Assembly: GCA_012514315.1 (NCBI GenBank)
Contig: JAAZAN010000096.1
Coordinates: forward strand, 1,884 to 65,883
Direction of reading: 5' to 3'
Source of the DNA: Chloroflexota bacterium
GTDB lineage: Bacteria > Chloroflexota > Anaerolineae > B4-G1
DNA: 64,000 bases
Shown: piece by piece, positions 2,205-44,252 of the stretch
Numbering within the stretch: position 1 is the stretch's first letter
How the letters are laid out: each line of letters opens with the position of its first letter
Notes under the pieces: model-generated
Told to the model about the DNA's origin: nothing
The model's database searches: none
Seen by the model: only the letters and a program-made list of their open reading frames with translations
Position numbers and translations under genes: made by a program

Positions 2205-3299
2205 CTAGAACGGGTAGAAGTCGCGTGCGGTGTCGAACGCGGCGACGATGTTCTCCGGCGGCGTGCCGGCCTGGATGGCGTGTGACGGCCCCAGTATGTA
2301 GCCGCCGTTCCTGCCCAGTGTGCTGATCAGATGCTGGACCTCGTTGCGGACATCGTCCACCGTGCCGAATGGCAACGTAGTCTGCACGCTGACGCCGCCC
2401 TCAAAGCAGAGTCGCTCGCCGAAGCGATTCTTGAGGTCCGCCGGGTCCATGCCCTCGGCGCTGAACTGCAGCGCCTGCAGGATGTCAATGCCCATGTCGA
2501 TCAGGCCATCGACGAAACTGCTGACCGCGCCGTCAGTGTGGTAGATCACCTTGACCCCGTCGAAGTTGTGGATCGCTGCGTTCATTCGTTCGTGATAGGG
2601 CTTGATGAACGTCTCCCACATCTGGCGCGACATCAGGGGGCCCTGCTGCCCGGCCAGGTCGTCGGCTGTGAAGACCAGGTCGATCTCCCCCTGGCCGGCC
2701 TCAAGGACGCGCGCGAAGAACGGAACGTAGAAGTCGGTGACGCGGCCCATAATGGCGTGCACCAGCTCCGGGTTGAGCGCCATGTCCATGAACATGTTTT
2801 CGAAGCCGCGCATGTACCAGGACGTCTCGAAGATATTGCCGTTAGCGACGATGACGCACCGCTCACCATCGGCCTGGATACTGGCGATGCGCTCCGGTAT
2901 GACAGAATAGTCGAACCATTCGACGCTGGGCCAGCGATGGGCATTGAGACCGTCGACATCCTCCACTCCAGCCAGGGGATAGAACTCGATCTCGTCGTAG
3001 CTACTGTCTGGATCCCCATAGCTGTAGTTCACGGCTTTCCGGCGCACCGACCAGATATCCTCGCCCTCGCTCAGCGATGGCCCGATGTACTGAGGAGCCA
3101 CGCCTCGGATGTCGATGAGCGGATCCAGGTAGGCTTCAACCGAGAGGCCACGCGTGCGTTGGAGGTAGTCGGTCAACGCACGGTATGCGGGCGGATTGAT
3201 GCCGGAGCAGACCATCGCGATGGGGACGCGGTCCGTTTCCTGATGATCCAGCGCCAGGCGCACGCGCTCACGGCTTGACATTGTCTCTCTGCGTGACAT
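2205..3299 (-). CDS. Uroporphyrinogen decarboxylase (URO-D) family protein, MtaA/CmuA-like, substrate unknown
   Basis: 364-aa ORF. N-terminal RERVRLALDHQETDRVPI and C-terminal GGYILGPSHAIQAGTPPENI are typical of URO-D-fold proteins. The start could be 3281 (MSSRER). Confidence 0.75.
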   Translation of the reverse strand: MSRRETMSSRERVRLALDHQETDRVPIAMVCSGINPPAYRALTDYLQRTRGLSVEAYLDPLIDIRGVAPQYIGPSLSEGEDIWSVRRKAVNYSYGDPDSSYDEIEFYPLAGVEDVDGLNAHRWPSVEWFDYSVIPERIASIQADGERCVIVANGNIFETSWYMRGFENMFMDMALNPELVHAIMGRVTDFYVPFFARVLEAGQGEIDLVFTADDLAGQQGPLMSRQMWETFIKPYHERMNAAIHNFDGVKVIYHTDGAVSSFVDGLIDMGIDILQALQFSAEGMDPADLKNRFGERLCFEGGVSVQTTLPFGTVDDVRNEVQHLISTLGRNGGYILGPSHAIQAGTPPENIVAAFDTARDFYPF

Positions 3300-3332
3300 A
3301 TCGTCTCTCCAAGTAGGTGCAGGGCGGGTGGA

Positions 3333-4241
3333 CTATCCCTTGATTCCCGACATCACGACGCCACGGACGAAGTACTGCTGCAGGAAGATGAACAAGAGGA
3401 GCGAGGGCAACGTCATCATCATCGCCGAAGCCATCAGCAGATGCTCGGTGGCTCCACCGCCCGCCTCTGCCGACCGACGGTAGTACTGCAGCCCGAGCTG
3501 CAGTGTGAACTTCTCCAGCGTGTTCAGATAGATGAGGGGATAGAAGAAGTCGTTCCAGCTCCCAAGAAACGAGAAGATGGCCATCGTGATGAAGACGGGT
3601 TTCGACATCGGGACCAGGATACGGAAGAAGATGGACAGTGAAGAGGCTCCATCGATTGTCGCGGCCTCGTCGAACTCCTTGGGGAGCGTCAGAAAGAACT
3701 GGCGGAATAGGAAGATGGCGAACGCGCCGCCGCCAAAGTAGGCTGGCACGATCAGCGGGTTGTAGCTATCGAGCCACCCCAGGAATCTGAACAAGATGAA
3801 CTGGGGGATGATCGTGACTTGACTGGGAAGCATGAGGGTGCTCAACATCACGACAAACAGCGCGTCGCGTCCGGGGAAGCGGAAGCGCGAGAATCCATAG
3901 GCAACGAGCGAGGCAGATAGCATCTGTCCGATCAGCGTCGCGACGGTGACGACGATACTGTTGCGGTAGAAGAGCGCGAAGGGTATCTGGCGCCAGATCT
4001 CAATGTAGTTGTGCCACTGGAAGACCTTCGGAAACAGCGTGGGCGGAAAGATGAATATCTCGCGCGTGGTCTTGAGCGATGTGAACAGGGCCCACATGAA
4101 CGGACCACCGAACAGCACCGCCAGCACCAAGATGAGCAAGTAGGTACCTGATTGAAGCAGATGCCGTCTCCAAGTGCGGCTGCGACGCGTCCTCGTCAGC
4201 CCGTTGGCTGCCTGCTGTACGGCGACTGGCTGTGATCTCAT
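3333..4241 (-). CDS. Carbohydrate ABC transporter permease (MalG-like)
   Basis: Six predicted TM segments and an EAA loop (EAATIDGASSLSIFFRILVPM). The start abuts the stop of the upstream permease. Confidence 0.9.
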   Translation of the reverse strand: MRSQPVAVQQAANGLTRTRRSRTWRRHLLQSGTYLLILVLAVLFGGPFMWALFTSLKTTREIFIFPPTLFPKVFQWHNYIEIWRQIPFALFYRNSIVVTVATLIGQMLSASLVAYGFSRFRFPGRDALFVVMLSTLMLPSQVTIIPQFILFRFLGWLDSYNPLIVPAYFGGGAFAIFLFRQFFLTLPKEFDEAATIDGASSLSIFFRILVPMSKPVFITMAIFSFLGSWNDFFYPLIYLNTLEKFTLQLGLQYYRRSAEAGGGATEHLLMASAMMMTLPSLLLFIFLQQYFVRGVVMSGIKG

Positions 4242-5203
4242 CAGATACCCCCCGACTGTGTCTCATAGTAGACCCAGCTCCGCGCCATTCGAAGCTGCAG
4301 ATAGGTCAGAAGCAGCACCATGAAGAAGAAGACCCACGCCAGCGCCGATCCGTAGCCCATCTCCCAGTACATGAAGGCGTATTTATACAGGTTAAGTACA
4401 TAGAAGAGCGTTGACTGCGACGGGCCGCCAACCGAGTGAGCCCCGCTCGAGGCGACGTAGGCAGAGGAGAAGAGCTGCAGAGCGCCAATGATGCCCATAA
4501 CCAGGCTGAAGAAGATCGTCGGAGTCAGCAGCGGTAGCGTGACGCGCCAGAAGCGACTCCACGAGCCCGCTCCGTCGATCTCGGCCGCTTCGTGAAGCTC
4601 GATGGGGACGCCCTGCAGTCCGGCCAGAAAGATCAGCATCGTTCCTCCGCCAACGCTGCCCCACAGCCCGATGATGATCAACGCGGGCTTCGACCAGGTA
4701 GGGCTCGCGAACCATCCAGGTCCGTCGATGCCGATCAGCGAGAGCAGGTAGTTGATCAACCCGACCTGAGGATTGAATATCCAGATCCACAGCATCATCG
4801 CAGCGACGATCGGGGTGACTGAGGGCAGGAAGAAGATGGTACGGAACAGCGCCCTGCCCCTGATCCGGCCGTTCAGCAGCATTGCGCAGAGTAGCGAGCC
4901 GGTGACCCCTACCGGGACCGCTATCGCCGTATAGTACAGAGTGTTCTCCAAGGATTTCCAGAACGTTGGGTCGGTGGTGATGCGGGCATAGTTGGCCAAC
5001 CCGGTGAATCGAGGCGGCTGGATTAGGGCAAAGGTTGTCAGGCTCAAGTACAGGGACGCGAGGACTGGTCCAAACGTGAAGACCAGGTACCCGATTATCC
5101 AGGGCGAGATGTACGCGTACCCCAGGATCGCCTCATGGCGTTCGAGCGTGAGCCAGGGTCGCTTACGTCCGCTGCTATCTGCTTGCCAGGTCCCCGTTGT
5201 CAT
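4241..5203 (-). CDS. Carbohydrate ABC transporter permease (MalF-like)
   Basis: EAA loop EAAEIDGAGSWSRFWRVTLPLL. I chose the ATG at 5203 (MTTGTWQ) because AAGGAG lies 9 nt upstream. The track ORF extends to 5302. Confidence 0.85.
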   Translation of the reverse strand: MTTGTWQADSSGRKRPWLTLERHEAILGYAYISPWIIGYLVFTFGPVLASLYLSLTTFALIQPPRFTGLANYARITTDPTFWKSLENTLYYTAIAVPVGVTGSLLCAMLLNGRIRGRALFRTIFFLPSVTPIVAAMMLWIWIFNPQVGLINYLLSLIGIDGPGWFASPTWSKPALIIIGLWGSVGGGTMLIFLAGLQGVPIELHEAAEIDGAGSWSRFWRVTLPLLTPTIFFSLVMGIIGALQLFSSAYVASSGAHSVGGPSQSTLFYVLNLYKYAFMYWEMGYGSALAWVFFFMVLLLTYLQLRMARSWVYYETQSGGI

Positions 5204-39791: not shown

Positions 39792-40214
39792 TTGAGTGAA
39801 TCTGACGAGAGGCGATCTCCGTTCTCCCATCCGACTGAGGAGGCGTTTGCTCGCATATTGGATTTCTACGGCATAGCCTGGATGTACGAACCGCGGACCT
39901 TTCCCCTCGAGTGGGACGCTGACGGGAATGTCACCGAGGCGTTCTCACCAGACTTCTATCTCCCTGATCAGGACTTGTACGTCGAGCTCACAACGCTGCG
40001 GCCGAAACTGGCCAGGTACAAGAATCGGCGTCTCCGCCGAATGCAGGAACTATACCCGGACGTGAATGTCAAGTTGTTCAAGCGGAAGGACCTCCGCGAA
40101 CTGATGATCAAGTATGGACTCGACAGTCAGGCGGCGCCAATCATCGGGACAGAAGCGCAGACTGAGAGAGATGGGCCCGACTCAGACGCTGATGTGGAGG
40201 GAGGAACTCCGTGA
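39792..40214 (+). CDS. Hypothetical protein with PD-(D/E)xK nuclease-like motif
   Basis: TTG start. SPDFYLPDQDLYVELTTLRPK fits D...(D/E)xK spacing. The stop overlaps the hpt start (GTGA). Confidence 0.45.
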   Translation: MSESDERRSPFSHPTEEAFARILDFYGIAWMYEPRTFPLEWDADGNVTEAFSPDFYLPDQDLYVELTTLRPKLARYKNRRLRRMQELYPDVNVKLFKRKDLRELMIKYGLDSQAAPIIGTEAQTERDGPDSDADVEGGTP

Positions 40215-40801
40215 GCTGGTATAGCCTGGATGAGTATGGAGGGCTGGCGCCGTCGATCTCGGAGGTGCTCATCACTGAGAGTGAGCTGCACCAGAAAGTG
40301 CGCGAGATGGGCGCTGCAATCTCGCGCGATTACGCTGGACTGAACCCTCTGCTGGTGGGGGTTCTGAAGGGCGTCGTGGTCTTCCTGGCCGATCTGCAGC
40401 GGGCCATCACCATACCGATCGAGATGGACTGCATCGCGGTCTCGAAATACGGGCCCGGAGGAATGGGCGTTGTCCGGCTGATCAAGGATCTGGAAGCATC
40501 GATCACTGGGCGGCATGTGCTCTTTGTCGAGGATGTCGTGGATACCGGGCTGACACTGAACTATCTGTTACGGAACCTGCGCACCCGTGATCCAGCGAGC
40601 CTCGACGTCTGCGTGCTCTTCAACAAACCCCACCATCGTCTCATCGACATCCCAGTGAAGTACGCGGGATTTGACCTACCGGATCGCTTCGTGGTGGGAT
40701 ATGGGCTCGACTACCGTGAGCGATTCCGAAATCTGCCCTTCGTCGGGGTGCTGGCAGCTGAAACGCTGCAGAACCATCAGTCTGATACTGAATCAGTCTA
40801 G
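40211..40801 (+). CDS. hpt: Hypoxanthine(-guanine) phosphoribosyltransferase
   Basis: LLVGVLKGVVVFLADL and the PRPP loop VLFVEDVVDTGLTLNYL. Confidence 0.9.
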   Translation: MSWYSLDEYGGLAPSISEVLITESELHQKVREMGAAISRDYAGLNPLLVGVLKGVVVFLADLQRAITIPIEMDCIAVSKYGPGGMGVVRLIKDLEASITGRHVLFVEDVVDTGLTLNYLLRNLRTRDPASLDVCVLFNKPHHRLIDIPVKYAGFDLPDRFVVGYGLDYRERFRNLPFVGVLAAETLQNHQSDTESV

Positions 40802-40842
40802 CTGCCCGCTGCGCCAACGCGCGCGTCTGATGTACTTCACCA

Positions 40843-41208
40843 GGCAAGAAGAGCCCCCCGGCCATACAAACAGCCGGGGGGCTCTTTGGACGCACAAAAA
40901 GCGGGAGCCCCAAGTAACCTTCCGGCTCTTCTTCACTGAACCCTTTCGGGTCTCTCTCGATGCTCCGCTCCTTTGATCTTCCTTTGGCGGTCCCCCTTTC
41001 GAGTTTCCGCTTTTCGGTTGATCTTAGAAGCCTCATTACTCCGAGAGGTCTTCTGTCTCTGTTCTCCGAGTTTCCTATCTGACGATTTCTCGCCCTACTT
41101 TCCACTCTTTGAACTTGACTTCAGATCTGTGAAGCCACCATCCAATTCCTCGGGGCTTCCCTACCCTTTGGTCTGCCTTCCCCTTCGAGTTGGCTTTCCT
41201 TAGGGTGT
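40843..41208 (-). ncRNA. Candidate ~360-nt purine-rich, GGA-rich small RNA of unknown family
   Basis: Bounded by a consensus promoter (41213-41241) and the 40851-40884 hairpin. No ORF with a stop before the terminator. Repeated AACUCGrAr(G)GGGA modules occur in predicted loops. Confidence 0.5.
40851..40884. terminator. Bidirectional intrinsic-terminator-like hairpin
   Basis: GAGCCCCCCGGC (40851-40862), 10-nt loop, GCCGGGGGGCTC (40873-40884). Followed by TTTGG on the + strand and TCTTGCC on the - strand. Confidence 0.65.
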
Positions 41209-41212
41209 AGAT

Positions 41213-41241
41213 ACTATACCAGATAATGCGCCATGTGTCAA
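41213..41241 (-). promoter_or_regulatory. Near-consensus sigma-70 promoter driving the candidate sRNA
   Basis: Minus strand: TTGACA (41241-41236), 17-nt spacer, TATAGT (41218-41213). Confidence 0.65.
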
Positions 41242-41332: not shown

Positions 41333-41361
41333 TTGACGCCAGATAGCATCAGGGCCATACT
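41333..41361 (+). promoter_or_regulatory. Promoter candidate giving a leaderless sulfatase mRNA
   Basis: TTGACG (41333-41338), 17-nt spacer, CATACT (41356-41361). The ATG at 41368 lies 7 nt after the -10 element and has no Shine-Dalgarno. Confidence 0.5.
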
Positions 41362-41367
41362 AGCCCT

Positions 41368-42807
41368 ATGACAGATCAACTCAAGCAGCCGAACATCATA
41401 CTCATCATCACGGATCAACAGCGCTACGATACCGTGCGAGCGCTCGGTTTCCCATATGTGGACACTCCGAATCTGGATCGTCTGGCACGGGAGGGAGTAG
41501 CGTTCACTCAGTGTCACGTGACCGCGCCCTCGTGTGTGCCTTCGCGGTGCAGCCTGTTCACTGGCTACCACCCTCACACAACCGGTGTGCTCAAGAACGG
41601 GGATCGGTGGCAGCATTCGTGGGTGGAGAGGCTGGCCGCCGAAGGGTATACGTGCATCAACATCGGCAAGATGCATACCGTGCCGTTTGAGGCGAGCGCC
41701 GGGTTCCACGAGCGCTACATCGTTGAGAACAAGGATCGGTATCTGGAGGGACGATACTTCCTCGATGAGTGGGATAAGGCGATGCACGCACGCGGACTGG
41801 TCAAGCAGCAGCGGGAGCTATACCGCCAGTTGCCAGACTACGCCGAGCGACTTGGCGCGTTTGAGTGGGAGCTGCCGGAGGATCTCCACTCCGACGTCTT
41901 CGTCGGAGGGTTGGCGACCTGGTGGCTGGAGACCAAGCCTCGCCCAGACGGGCCCTTGTTTCTGCAGATCGGCTTCGCTGGACCGCATCCCCCTTATGAC
42001 CCTACGCCGCGCCATGCCGAACCATATCTGGACAGGGATCTGCCGCTGCCGACGTTCACGCCTGAGGAACTCGCCTCACAGCCCCCACCGCTCCAGGCGA
42101 TGCGGCGGCACAACGCGGAGGCCGATCACGACTCGATTGTGCATCTCCTCGACCCGTCTCGGACACAGCTTCATCGTCAGCGGGCCTACTACTTGGCGAA
42201 TATCACAATGATCGACGAACAGGTAGGTCGCATCCTGACCTCGCTCGATCGGAGCGGATACCTGGATGATGCGGTGGTCATATTCACTTCGGATCACGGC
42301 GACTGTCTCGGCGATCACGGGCACAGTCAGAAGTGGACCATGTATGACGCTGTAACTCGCGTGCCGCTGTTGATCTGGGCTCCCGGTCGTGCAGTGGCCG
42401 GACTCCATCGCGATGGGCTGTGCCAGATGATGGACATCGGGCCAACCATCCTCGAGTTGGCCGGGGTGGCACGGCCTGCGTCTATGGAGGCGCAATCGCT
42501 GGCGCCGGCGTTGACTGGCAGTGAGTGGGCGGGGCGTAACAGGGTTTTCTCCGAGCACGGGCGTGACGGCATCCTGCGTGAGGCGGAGTTTATGACAATG
42601 GTGCGCACCAGGGATTGGAAACTCGTTCACTTCCTCGATGCACCGTACGGGCAGTTGTTCGATCTGGCGAACGACCCGACTGAGACGCACAATCTGTGGG
42701 ATGAACCGCGGCATCGCGCTGAGAAGGATTGGCTCCTGGAGGAGTTGCGCGAATGGCGGATGCGAAGCGCATACCAAACTCGGAAGCTGTTCGAGCACTG
42801 CCGATAG
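41368..42807 (+). CDS. Cys-type (formylglycine) sulfatase, no signal peptide
   Basis: NIILIITDQQRYD and the CxPxR motif SCVPSRCSLFTG. Confidence 0.85.
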   Translation: MTDQLKQPNIILIITDQQRYDTVRALGFPYVDTPNLDRLAREGVAFTQCHVTAPSCVPSRCSLFTGYHPHTTGVLKNGDRWQHSWVERLAAEGYTCINIGKMHTVPFEASAGFHERYIVENKDRYLEGRYFLDEWDKAMHARGLVKQQRELYRQLPDYAERLGAFEWELPEDLHSDVFVGGLATWWLETKPRPDGPLFLQIGFAGPHPPYDPTPRHAEPYLDRDLPLPTFTPEELASQPPPLQAMRRHNAEADHDSIVHLLDPSRTQLHRQRAYYLANITMIDEQVGRILTSLDRSGYLDDAVVIFTSDHGDCLGDHGHSQKWTMYDAVTRVPLLIWAPGRAVAGLHRDGLCQMMDIGPTILELAGVARPASMEAQSLAPALTGSEWAGRNRVFSEHGRDGILREAEFMTMVRTRDWKLVHFLDAPYGQLFDLANDPTETHNLWDEPRHRAEKDWLLEELREWRMRSAYQTRKLFEHCR

Positions 42808-42839
42808 ATGAGGGCCAATTGCTGCCGGAGGGTAGATCT

Positions 42840-44252
42840 ATGTCCAGACTCACCGATGTCCGGGTAACCGCTGCTGCGCTCTACTTCCTTCCTGTCGAGA
42901 CTCGAGTACCACTCAAGTTCGGGCGGGAGATCGCTACGTACGTGACATGCGCCCGCGCGTGTCTACGGGTGCGTGATGCGCGAGGCCGCACCGCGGTTGG
43001 GTGGGGCGAGACGCCGCTGAGCGTCCAATGGGTCTGGCCTAGTACAATGCCCTACGAGGATCGTCACGAGGCGCTCAAGCATCTCTGCGTGCAGTTGGCT
43101 GAGTCGTGGTCCGACTATGACAGAAGAGGGCATCCGATCGAGATCGGACACGCGTTCGTCAGAGAGGTTCTACCAGAGTGTTTGGAAATGCTGAACACCG
43201 GTACACCGCCCGGGAGCGAACCGGTCCCGGGGCTTGCTGGGCTTGTCTGCTGCTCAGCGTTTGACATCGCGCTTCACGACGCATACGGCGCATTGCACGC
43301 GGCTCCAGTCTACCAGACGTATGGCCCGGACTACATGACTGCTGATCTCTCCCAACTGATCACGCCGGCAGATGATGTCGACATCGACTTCGCGCACAGG
43401 TTCCCGGAGTCTTTCACCATACAGCAACCGCCTACCAGCGTAGTTGCGTGGCATCTCGTGGGCGGGTTGGATCCACTCGACGAGGATGATCTGCAGGGCA
43501 ACGAACCGGATGACGGCTACCCGGTCACGCTCAGAGAGTGGATCGCCCGCGATGGATTGAAGTGTCTCAAGGTGAAGCTGCTGGGAACAGATAGCGAGTG
43601 GGACACCAGGCGACTGGTTGACGTGGGGAAGCTCGCTATTGAAGGCAACGTGGACTGGTTGACCAGTGACTTCAATTGCACGGTGAGCGACCCGCGTTAT
43701 GTTGTCGAGATACTGGATCGCTTGCTGCTCGATCATCCCCGAATCTACGGCATGCTCTTGTATGTCGAGCAACCATTTCCCTATGACCTCGAAGCCCACC
43801 GCATCGACGTGCACAGCATCTCGGCGCGCAAGCCGTTGTTCATGGACGAGAGCGCTCACGACTGGAGGATGGTGCGTCTGGGCCGTGAGCTTGGCTGGAC
43901 AGGAGTTGCGCTCAAGACGTGCAAGACACAGACTGGAGCGCTACTGTCGATGTGCTGGGCGAAGGCCCACGGGATGACGCTGATGGTGCAGGACCTGACG
44001 AACCCGATGCTGGCGCAGATTCCACACGTGTTGCTCGCGGCCCACGCCGGGACGATCATGGGCGTGGAGACGAACGCGATGCAATTCTACCCGGAGGCAT
44101 CGCGGCCCGAGTCGCTGGTTCATCCGGGGCTGTACCGACGGCAGAACGGCGCCGTCGACCTGTCCACCCTATCCGGCCCGGGATTCGGCTACAGATTGGG
44201 CGAGATCGAGCGCGATCTGCCAGAACCCGTGGCCGCCTTCGGGGATTGGTGA
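42840..44252 (+). CDS. Enolase-superfamily enzyme (mandelate racemase/acid-sugar dehydratase-like)
   Basis: ATG at 42840 after GGAGGG. KxK motif LKVKLLG. Candidate metal ligands SDFN, YVEQPF, FMDESAH. The track ORF's earlier start overlaps the sulfatase gene. Confidence 0.7.
   Translation: MSRLTDVRVTAAALYFLPVETRVPLKFGREIATYVTCARACLRVRDARGRTAVGWGETPLSVQWVWPSTMPYEDRHEALKHLCVQLAESWSDYDRRGHPIEIGHAFVREVLPECLEMLNTGTPPGSEPVPGLAGLVCCSAFDIALHDAYGALHAAPVYQTYGPDYMTADLSQLITPADDVDIDFAHRFPESFTIQQPPTSVVAWHLVGGLDPLDEDDLQGNEPDDGYPVTLREWIARDGLKCLKVKLLGTDSEWDTRRLVDVGKLAIEGNVDWLTSDFNCTVSDPRYVVEILDRLLLDHPRIYGMLLYVEQPFPYDLEAHRIDVHSISARKPLFMDESAHDWRMVRLGRELGWTGVALKTCKTQTGALLSMCWAKAHGMTLMVQDLTNPMLAQIPHVLLAAHAGTIMGVETNAMQFYPEASRPESLVHPGLYRRQNGAVDLSTLSGPGFGYRLGEIERDLPEPVAAFGDW

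Follow-up and report, generated by a model that had tools for sequence, protein, structure and literature searches.

A structured RNA family without an Rfam match, encoded convergently to hpt in Anaerolineae-type Chloroflexota

The window analysed here is a stretch of 64,000 nucleotides from a Chloroflexota bacterium (contig JAAZAN010000096.1). Its minus strand, from 41206 to about 40896, is best read as a stand-alone gene of a structured non-coding RNA. The RNA belongs to a family which is conserved among Anaerolineae-type Chloroflexota and has no match in Rfam, and it probably acts in trans through its terminal rod. A probability of roughly 0.6 is assigned to this reading as a whole. The family is new, as no prior description of it was found in the open-access literature and neither a model nor a searched paper matches it; the word refers to the RNA family, and no new mechanism is demonstrated. 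The initial annotation had proposed that the minus strand encodes a non-coding RNA as a complete unit with its own promoter and terminator, and this proposal is supported by a promoter kept among relatives, by covarying helices and by the absence of a conserved ORF. The RNA is class-wide and strongly conserved, with its own promoter, a recognition-like invariant motif and a stable place by the purine-salvage gene hpt.

The intergenic gap between the end of hpt (40801) and the start of the sulfatase gene (41368) is 566 bp long. Its G+C content was determined to be 0.50-0.53 compared to 0.58-0.62 in the flanks, and its plus strand is rich in C and T (AT skew -0.47, GC skew -0.28), in agreement with the earlier description. 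The hpt gene (40211-40801, plus strand) is the operon partner of a gene for a 140-aa protein (39792-40214, plus strand) with no assigned family, and both are conserved convergent neighbours of the RNA gene. The RNA gene and hpt of the window do not overlap, being set apart by a spacer of 95 nt which contains a 17-bp hairpin. In the sense of the RNA, nothing lies before hpt except the unconserved ORF 40641..41105 which, as described before, runs antisense into hpt.

A near-consensus sigma-70 promoter was detected on the minus strand exactly where it had been reported. It consists of the -35 hexamer TTGACA (41241-41236), a 17-nt spacer and the -10 hexamer TATAGT (41218-41213) with an upstream TG, giving an extended -10 element TGgTATAGT at 41221-41213 which aligns with the TATAAT-like hexamers of relatives. 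The hexamers match the consensus at 11 of 12 positions; 2 sites of such quality were found in 4 kb, where 1.1 are expected. Among the family copies with enough upstream sequence, the promoter is kept in 91 of 104, when at least 5/6 matches to TTGACA are required 16-18 nt before TAnnnT.

The predicted RNA is about 311 nt long (41206-40896, minus strand), with the start placed 7 nt past the -10 hexamer and the 3' end at the U-tract UUUUU (40900-40896), which follows directly 3' of the long-range helix P1 and is the more likely primary 3' end. P1 and this tract have the form of an intrinsic terminator, a G/C-rich stem with an immediate U-tract. A run of at least four U within 14 nt 3' of P1 was found in 87 of the 112 family copies, and the 12 nt 3' of P1 are on average 62% T across copies. 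As a terminator stem, P1 is atypical, being a long-range helix which closes about 250 nt instead of a local hairpin. The initial annotation had ended a transcript of about 360 nt at a 12-13-bp G/C hairpin further downstream. That hairpin is real but longer, with up to 17 bp over 40849-40888; it is probably a second terminator, common to the RNA gene and hpt, and the first terminator lies about 50 nt earlier, after P1. The hairpin is followed only by UCUU, and the terminator scan made no call there. The 3' end could alternatively lie near 40845, past this hairpin. A strong hairpin occurs at the same position in about half of the family members (mean z = -2.3). In the contig L103, otherwise identical to the window, the hairpin loop is inverted.

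The family was collected with nhmmer and two sequence anchors, resulting in 112 copies from 36 Anaerolineae-type genome loci and more than 70 metagenome contigs. All the genome loci are labelled Chloroflexota except one, labelled Acidobacteriota. Among the copies are those of A. thermolimosa IMO-1 (L038 4565-4800, minus strand) and of Promineofilum (L025 4590-4920). The family HMM found a single copy in the window, with E = 3e-77. The 22 hpt loci from outside the Chloroflexota contained no copy, and neither did viral contigs; a phage or mobile origin was dropped after the viral-contig scan gave two chance matches, both lacking the 5' anchor. At the gathering score, none of the 4227 models of Rfam 15 matched anywhere in the window, and only tRNAs were matched in seven related loci. 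With the threshold relaxed to E <= 10, the G/C hairpin of the window was matched weakly, and the related loci L055 and L024 gave weak matches to unrelated viral, snoRNA, lncRNA and CRISPR-repeat models, all below the gathering score. These searches agree with the earlier observation that the sequence is not recognisable as 6S, tmRNA, RNase P, SRP or a riboswitch.

The window RNA folds far more stably than its shuffles, with z = -7.2 both with and without the G/C hairpin. In the family, P1 and P2 are 95.8% paired (87 sequences), and the value falls to 35-61% when the 3' partners are slid. Double-change cells numbered 152 compared to 43.6 in shuffles, of which 0/500 reached the observed value. 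RNAalifold, applied to an E-INS-i alignment, recovered P1, P2, P3 and inner helices. The helices covary, with many compensatory changes. The conserved G.U and U.G pairs identify the minus strand as that of the RNA, since the opposite strand would have A.C mismatches in their place.

The RNA begins with a variable hairpin P0 (41206-41163) which contains GCC-AACUCGAAGGGGAA-GGC and is not conserved in sequence. Of the 91 copies with a recognisable promoter, 51 have a leader of 27-88 nt, and all the 31 such leaders that were folded form a hairpin; in the other 40 copies the leader has just 3-7 nt and P0 is absent. P1 is formed by AGGGAAGCCCCGAG (41162-41149) and CUUGGGGCUCCC (40914-40903), with compensatory changes in 9 of 18 pairs (87 sequences); the column pair 13-81, for example, is G.U in 45/87 and A-U in 40/87. 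This 12-bp closing helix had been overlooked in the initial annotation. Beside P1 lies the invariant motif. Its 5' half, G followed by AAUUGGA (41148-41141; columns 16-23 of alignment A3), has A17, A18, U19 and U20 conserved to at least 86%, and in its 3' half, GAAGGUU followed by A (40922-40915), the 87 sequences show no variation at G74, G75, U76 and U77. The family consensus at this place, GAG-R-AAUUGGA / GAAGGUU-A-CUUG, is almost invariant, and the two U.G pairs vary to C-G alone, in 4 and 6 of the 87 sequences. The motif can also be written AAUUGGA/GAAGGUUA. A GG/CC pairing directly after AAUU/GGUU was considered and rejected, as the pairing there is only 68%; GGA opposite GAA is now read as a probable purine-purine internal loop. 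Between GGUUACUUG and the 16S 3' region (CAAGGUAACC) there is imperfect complementarity, which was dropped as a chance match by reasoning alone, the bases being already paired inside P1 and P2.

Further inside, P3 pairs GGCUUCAC (41136-41129) with GUGAA(GAAGA)GCC (40936-40924), and compensatory changes were detected by RNAalifold (column pairs 31-34 with 397-407). The GAAA-tetraloop hairpin at 40952-40938, noted before, is present in the window; many relatives have a larger branch in its place, and an AGUA-helix-GAA motif occurs in 9/72. The subtype of the window also carries a kink-turn-like motif, identified by motif scan and covariation. The 5' strand of helix S1 (41048-41042) is followed by the bulged strand GU/AAU/GA/GGCUUC (41039-41027), and the non-bulged strand GGAGC G/GA/GC (40971-40962) is followed by the 3' strand of S1 (40959-40952). 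The elements of a kink-turn are recognisable in this sequence: a C stem, a 3-nt bulge, tandem G.A/A.G pairs, an NC stem and covarying helices. The motif with 7/7 flanking pairs was found in 32 of 72 long-subtype RNAs compared to 1.0 in shuffles. Its flanking helices are 84-100% paired, with double changes in 10 of 12 pairs; the GA dinucleotides, together with two of the three helices, had served to select these rows. Beyond the motif, the variable apical hairpin GCGG-AAACUCGAAAGGGGGA-CCGC (41010-40987) is present in the window and not conserved in relatives.

The interior of the family ranges from a hairpin of about 50 nt up to about 300 nt. Short forms, in which 160-190 nt separate the two strands of P1, fold into rods whose ends are paired, and long forms are branched. 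The minimal members L003 and L005 consist of just P1, the invariant motif and a simple hairpin; therefore, the shared function should reside in the rod. Our best guess at this function is a trans-acting stable RNA which is recognised through the invariant terminal rod. The near-consensus sigma-70 promoter would drive transcription towards the 3' end of the operon that hpt forms with the gene for the 140-aa protein, and the transcript would be closed by P1 and end at the U-tract. The R.A mismatch, AAUU/GGUU with its two U.G pairs and GGA opposite GAA make up the almost invariant rod beside P1, through which a partner, most likely a protein, would recognise the RNA. The distal domain, which varies by lineage and in the window's subtype includes the kink-turn-like motif, would serve as a scaffold. 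The RNA is presumably abundant and may owe its stability to the pairing of its ends, to its 5' hairpin and to its U-tail. Three observations fit this reading poorly: the near-constant convergent position by hpt is left unexplained by a purely trans role, an intrinsic terminator whose stem closes about 250 nt is unusual, and two loci, L041 and L047, keep only a part of the P1-like hairpin sequence and no invariant motif. With regard to candidate partners, no match to CsrA, Hfq or YbxF was obtained by tblastn, and no L7Ae-type protein was found, in the window and 202 loci (about 1.3 Mb, a part of the genomes concerned).

The position by hpt raises the question whether the RNA gene is a cis partner of the hpt operon, its convergent promoter and terminators setting the 3' end or the level of the hpt mRNA. 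This could be achieved by transcriptional interference, by a shared terminator or by pairing of the RNA 3' end with the hpt 3' UTR, as in GadY/gadX. The 3' ends of the RNA and hpt face each other in about 85-90% of the copies. In metagenome copies found by RNA sequence, independently of hpt, the gene was convergent downstream in 62 of 72, in 59 of these within 400 nt, and conservation of the neighbour is seen on the hpt side but not on the promoter side. Several copies have a gap of at most 2 nt, so that the 3' end of hpt necessarily extends into the RNA gene there, and the second hairpin found in about half of the copies also lies between the genes. However, a purely positional or antisense role requires neither an invariant internal-loop motif nor covarying helices nor a kink-turn. 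About 10% of the copies are located elsewhere with unrelated neighbours, some of them without hpt, additional copies are present at the loci L012 and L034, and the two genes of the window are set apart by the 95-nt spacer with its hairpin. A cis role is judged unlikely as the main function. The 140-aa protein was also considered as the RNA partner and rejected: synteny is its only tie to the RNA, and 17 loci have its gene without an adjacent RNA despite room for one. The protein has no Pfam or NCBIfam family and gave weak matches to the PD-(D/E)xK nuclease fold.

It is improbable that the RNA is a sensor in which the core beside P1 binds a purine-pathway signal, another small molecule or a protein, the state of the core deciding between a stop at the U-tract and antisense read-through into the operon of the 140-aa gene and hpt. 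Binding would have this effect since one helix, P1, closes the core and also serves as the stem of the terminator. The U-tract directly after P1, the clustering of invariant nucleotides in the internal loop beside P1 and the role of the convergent gene in purine salvage are in line with such a sensor, and riboswitch-controlled antisense or non-coding RNAs have precedents, as with B12 and AspocR or the SAM riboswitch that precedes the ubiG antisense RNA. If true, the RNA would be a riboswitch-like element which controls purine salvage by antisense transcription and is conserved throughout a bacterial class. In contrast, no conserved anti-terminator pairing was found, the 40 of 91 copies with the shortest leaders have none that could compete with P1, and an interior of about 50 to 300 nt is an unusual size range for an aptamer. 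The second hairpins downstream would block read-through, and no riboswitch model matched. The transcript ends facing the 3' end of hpt, whereas a cis-leader lies upstream of the controlled gene and in the same sense.

A still smaller chance is given to a 6S- or Ms1-like RNA which binds RNA polymerase by mimicking an open promoter. The resemblance is in the paired 5' and 3' ends, the rod-like short forms, of which those of Anaerolineaceae can be drawn with a central internal loop, and the strong housekeeping-type promoter which suggests abundance. However, neither the 6S nor the 6S-like models gave a match to the window, L055 or L024 when E <= 10 was allowed, the minimal L003 and L005 are plain hairpins without a bubble, the long forms are branched, and the conservation lies at the base of the rod and not in a central bubble. 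The minimal members and the place of conservation led to the rejection of this reading.

The initial annotation had favoured a sponge of the CsrB/RsmY/RsmZ type, titrating a GGA-binding protein through many GGA loops, an attractive but wrong assignment which is corrected here and is retained at a very low probability. The family is purine-rich (53-69%), and some GGA of the window RNA, in this genome alone, do stand in hairpin loops. The count of 15 GGA was correct, but it is no excess because shuffles of the same composition give 11.9 +/- 2.7 (P = 0.16); across 38 family members the enrichment was similarly low (mean z = 0.54). In the minimum-free-energy fold most GGA are located in stems or linkers. 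Of the three AACUCG...GGGA modules described, two agree within one mismatch (0.14 expected) and stand at hairpin tops, but the third, at 41075-41061, is partial. The modules are parts of variable hairpins, the one at the 5' end and apical ones, and no conservation of them was detected in any aligned relative; the conserved parts are the terminal helix and the internal-loop motif, with no array of GGA loops. The Csr/Rsm covariance models did not match at the gathering score or at E <= 10, and csrA was absent from the window and 202 loci, a weak test as these are not whole genomes. The CsrB-like reading is thus largely refuted, as far as comparative sequence data can tell.

The idea that there is no RNA gene, and that the element is a small protein-coding gene or a structured 3' UTR or terminator of hpt, is hardly credible: stop-free stretches of 34-106 codons exist on either strand and the element follows hpt in about 85-90% of the copies, but no ORF is conserved at the protein level (those of the window match the identical contig alone, and the coding reading was rejected, in accordance with the earlier view that a protein product is unlikely), the alignment is rich in indels and size classes, the G.U pairs and the promoter point to the strand opposite hpt, and copies without hpt exist.

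Among known systems, GadY-type cis-antisense RNAs resemble the family in being convergent with a protein gene, with 3' overlap in some lineages. Such RNAs act through the overlap, without a conserved fold, whereas the fold of the present family is conserved and the overlap is absent in the window. In the Y RNAs, which bind Ro/Rsr, the end-pairing stem holds a conserved recognition element and the molecule has a 3' U-tail and a variable remainder. The logic of the present family is similar, with a paired-end stem, a conserved element and a U-tail, but no Y RNA or YrlA model matched, and the conserved sequence differs. Neither rsr nor rtcB was found near the RNA loci.

In sludge, sediments and soils, few bacteria are as abundant and as little cultured as the Anaerolineae, and there is almost no knowledge of their RNA biology. 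For similar RNAs, namely 6S, OLE and raiA, basic cellular roles were later proved. The present family is a testable object, with coordinates, a consensus, more than 100 sequences and the cultured hosts Anaerolinea thermophila and A. thermolimosa. It is most similar in kind to the raiA motif RNA, OLE, ROOL and GOLLD: these are stand-alone genes with strong covariation, near-invariant patches, restriction to lineages and stable synteny, and their function cannot be read from the sequence. In contrast to them, the conservation in the family is concentrated in the terminal rod and not spread across the fold, no homology to them is detectable with Rfam, and the hpt-linked RNAs are much shorter than OLE, ROOL and GOLLD and very variable in size. 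raiA is rare in Chloroflexota (PMC10861870). Like these orphan RNAs, the family is predicted to use standard 3D modules, namely the kink-turn, GNRA loops and an S-turn-like motif, and OLE RNA also has a kink-turn (PMC9723947).

The 566-bp gap between hpt (40211-40801, +, TIGR01203) and the sulfatase gene (41368-42807, +) contains a stand-alone gene for a conserved, structured RNA with its own promoter and terminator. The predicted transcript runs on the minus strand from 41206 to about 40896. The gap had a G+C content of 0.50-0.53, lower than that of the flanks (about 0.6), and a purine-rich minus strand. The initial annotation had proposed an sRNA here, and its elements were located as described: the minus-strand promoter (TTGACA, 17 nt, TATAGT; 11 of 12 positions matching, with TG upstream), a G/C hairpin taken as a terminator shared with hpt, the ORF 40641..41105, two full AACUCG modules and a GAAA hairpin. 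The fold of the region was far more stable than those of shuffled sequences (z = -7.2), with or without the G/C hairpin. The closing element was a long-range helix pairing 41162-41149 with 40914-40903, absent from that annotation.

With the hpt protein as a query, 80 genome loci were retrieved. The best of these (56-71% identical) were labelled Anaerolineae, Anaerolineales, Ardenticatenaceae, Caldilineaceae, Promineifilum or 'Chloroflexota', the exception being L001 (Acidobacteriota); the remaining loci belonged to Firmicutes and other phyla. Iterated nhmmer searches over the hpt loci, started with the candidate RNA, detected homologues in 35 loci, on the opposite strand directly downstream of hpt. 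All were Chloroflexota by label save L001, and none of the 22 hpt loci of other phyla carried a homologue. Metagenome contigs were searched with the 3' anchor of the family, AAGGUUACUUGGGGCCCC, only, and the search was blind to hpt. The 5' anchor, GGGAGCCCCGAGAAAUUGG, was present 150-370 nt upstream in 72 of the 120 matches. Convergent hpt was found downstream in 62 of these 72 copies and lay less than 400 nt away in 59, the gap sometimes being only about 2 nt; seven copies had space for hpt, but no hpt. The same anchor pattern gave two chance matches in viral contigs. The copies totalled 112, exactly one of them in the window. Two RNA copies stand in tandem in a Promineifilum MAG (L012 1521-2066, -), their P1 strands being 240 and 155 nt apart, and in a Caldilineaceae MAG an additional copy (L034 7379-7700, +) lies about 2.5 kb off, on the other strand and away from hpt.

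Alignment A3 comprised 87 distinct base regions, each with 40 nt of the 5' side and 46 nt of the 3' side joined. Since the two anchors had been matched separately, the pairing between them was unselected. The terminal helix P1 and the neighbouring AAUU/GGUU helix were 95.8% paired, compared with 35-61% when the 3' partners were slid by 1-3 columns. Double-change cells amounted to 152 versus 43.6 +/- 6 in shuffles, and none of 500 shuffles was as high. Compensatory changes were observed in columns 2-91 (CG 37, GC 15, UA 11, AU 6), 6-87 (GC 65, AU 21), 9-85 (CG 49, UA 36) and 10-84 (UA 31, CG 28, UG 27). P3 and the other inner helices, with compensatory changes, were also recovered by RNAalifold with 19 and 71 long-type sequences. 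A GG/CC pairing past AAUU/GGUU was dropped; as it was only 68% paired, the segment is read as a purine-purine loop. Conserved wobble pairs at 13-81 (GU 45, AU 40), 19-75 (UG 83, CG 4) and 20-74 (UG 75, CG 6) become A.C mismatches on the plus strand. Because of these pairs and the promoter, the minus strand is the RNA strand.

The universal part of the family is the terminal rod. A sigma-70-type promoter precedes the RNA in 91 of 104 copies, with a leader of 3-7 nt in 40 copies and 27-88 nt in 51. The leader hairpin P0 formed in all 31 long leaders folded, its sequence being unconserved; in one subtype a 5' domain, purine-rich and about 135 nt long, takes its place. Members of this subtype (L024 7478-7840, L031, L056) have a consensus promoter 171-176 nt before P1. 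P1 is a 12-15 bp helix with a single bulged A, and after it comes an invariant motif: an R.A mismatch, AAUU/GGUU with two U.G pairs, then GGA opposite GAA. The interior falls into three size classes and is only about 50 nt in the minimal members L003 and L005. P1 is followed by a U-tract, in which 87 of 112 copies have at least four consecutive U. In about half of the copies, another strong hairpin then stands in front of hpt; in the window it is the 'terminator' of the initial annotation. In three minimal members, useful to define the functional core, the P1 strands are about 85 nt apart: L003 (~4585-4780, -), L005 (~3286-3482, -) and L049, downstream of hpt. L049 is divergent, GAUUU and GGUUC replacing AAUU and GGUUA. 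Downstream of hpt, L041 has a bare P1-like hairpin (GGAGCCCCGAG...CUUGGGGCCC) with the invariant motif missing, and L047 has the 3' strand sequence CUUGGGGCCC alone; a 5' partner is not obvious.

In the long forms, the central helix S1 is followed by GY / NNN / GA / AGCUUC opposite GAAGU-G / GA / GC. This is the arrangement of a kink-turn, with a C stem, a 3-nt bulge and tandem G.A/A.G pairs, 3b.3n being mostly A.G. The motif with 7/7 flanking pairs occurred in 32 of 72 long forms versus 1.0 (maximum 4) in shuffled interiors, and in none of the 35 short or middle forms. The flanking helices covary; S1, which played no part in choosing the rows, was 84.5% paired with double changes in 5/5 pairs. 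The window copy lies at 41039-41027 and 40971-40962 (-). An S-turn-like AGUA-helix-GAA motif was found in nine long forms, the window's not among them.

As to known families, Rfam 15, a check proposed in the initial annotation, gave no gathering-score match anywhere in the window; matches at E <= 10 were weak and aligned to the G/C hairpin. Membership tests for Csr/Rsm, 6S, a riboswitch position and all Rfam models were each negative. A search of open-access full texts retrieved no description of the family. On these grounds the RNA is rated as a new family, though made of familiar modules. In behaviour it is akin to raiA and OLE, two orphan structured RNAs, and its layout resembles that of RNAs with the recognition site in the paired ends, such as Y RNAs. 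Taken alone, a real structured RNA family is highly probable. We suggest that it would be a stable trans-acting RNA recognised via the terminal rod, most likely by a protein, the interior serving as a lineage-specific scaffold. The whole statement, gene and mechanism together, is given a probability of about 0.6; the mechanism alone is held with much less confidence than the family.

Positional or antisense coupling to hpt would account for the synteny but leaves the fold unexplained, and is considered rather unlikely. A sensor built into the terminator is improbable. A 6S-like RNA, given the failed membership test, is still less probable. For the CsrB/RsmY/RsmZ-type sponge favoured initially, the count of 15 GGA was correct, but same-composition shuffles gave 11.9 +/- 2.7 (P = 0.16), therefore there is no excess; the modules lie within P0 and the apical hairpin past the kink-turn, both variable, and the Csr/Rsm test failed. 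Such a sponge is very improbable. Coding or UTR sequence can practically be dismissed. The region is non-coding: window ORFs on either strand matched the identical contig only (tblastn) and the family alignments are full of indels.

The hpt side of the RNA is conserved and the promoter side is not; RNA copies without hpt have unrelated neighbours. The reading frame of an uncharacterised 140-aa protein (39792-40214, +; relatives about 127-140 aa) shares 4 nt with the start of hpt, and a cytidylate-kinase-like gene often precedes it. The gene for the 140-aa protein was directly upstream of hpt in 56/56 Chloroflexota-type loci covering that DNA and in 0/22 other loci. No Pfam or NCBIfam family was assigned to the protein; its 5232 homologous clusters had only 'hypothetical' as source names (one as hpt), the named sources being Anaerolineae-type bacteria, and 51 alignment columns were invariant across 24 sequences. 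The AlphaFold2 model (pLDDT 72) gave weak matches only, to the PD-(D/E)xK nuclease fold (R2 endonuclease domain, I-Bth0305I, Vsr, AbaSI), and PDF...VELT falls at the site of PDF...VETK of T7 endonuclease I.

The metagenome contig L103 is from the same organism as the window (99.67% identity over 2.4 kb, window 43031-40606). All eight mismatches stem from the inverted loop of the 17-bp G/C hairpin that separates hpt from the RNA (window 40849-40886, L103 2146-2183); the inverted repeat has flipped its loop, or the difference is an artefact of assembly. In Promineifilum-type loci (L012 2248-2430; L025 5021-5447), the RNA gene is immediately preceded by tRNA genes in the same orientation, a setting typical of stable RNAs. 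In the hpt-less metagenome copies L101, L148 and L156, the RNA lies just downstream of a gene whose product ends in a domain resembling a formylglycine-generating enzyme, the likeness (...RAANRSS...GFRC) being read by eye from sequence. The window gene divergent from the RNA promoter encodes a sulfatase, and these neighbours are possibly a coincidence. A weaker promoter-like site (41333-41361, +; TTGACG, 17 nt, CATACT; 9/12) lies 7 nt before the start of the sulfatase gene and points towards it; with this site, the gap would contain a divergent promoter pair spaced by about 90 bp. An enolase-superfamily ORF (42729..44252, TTG start) overlaps the sulfatase 3' end by 79 nt (42729-42807), and its true start is probably further downstream.
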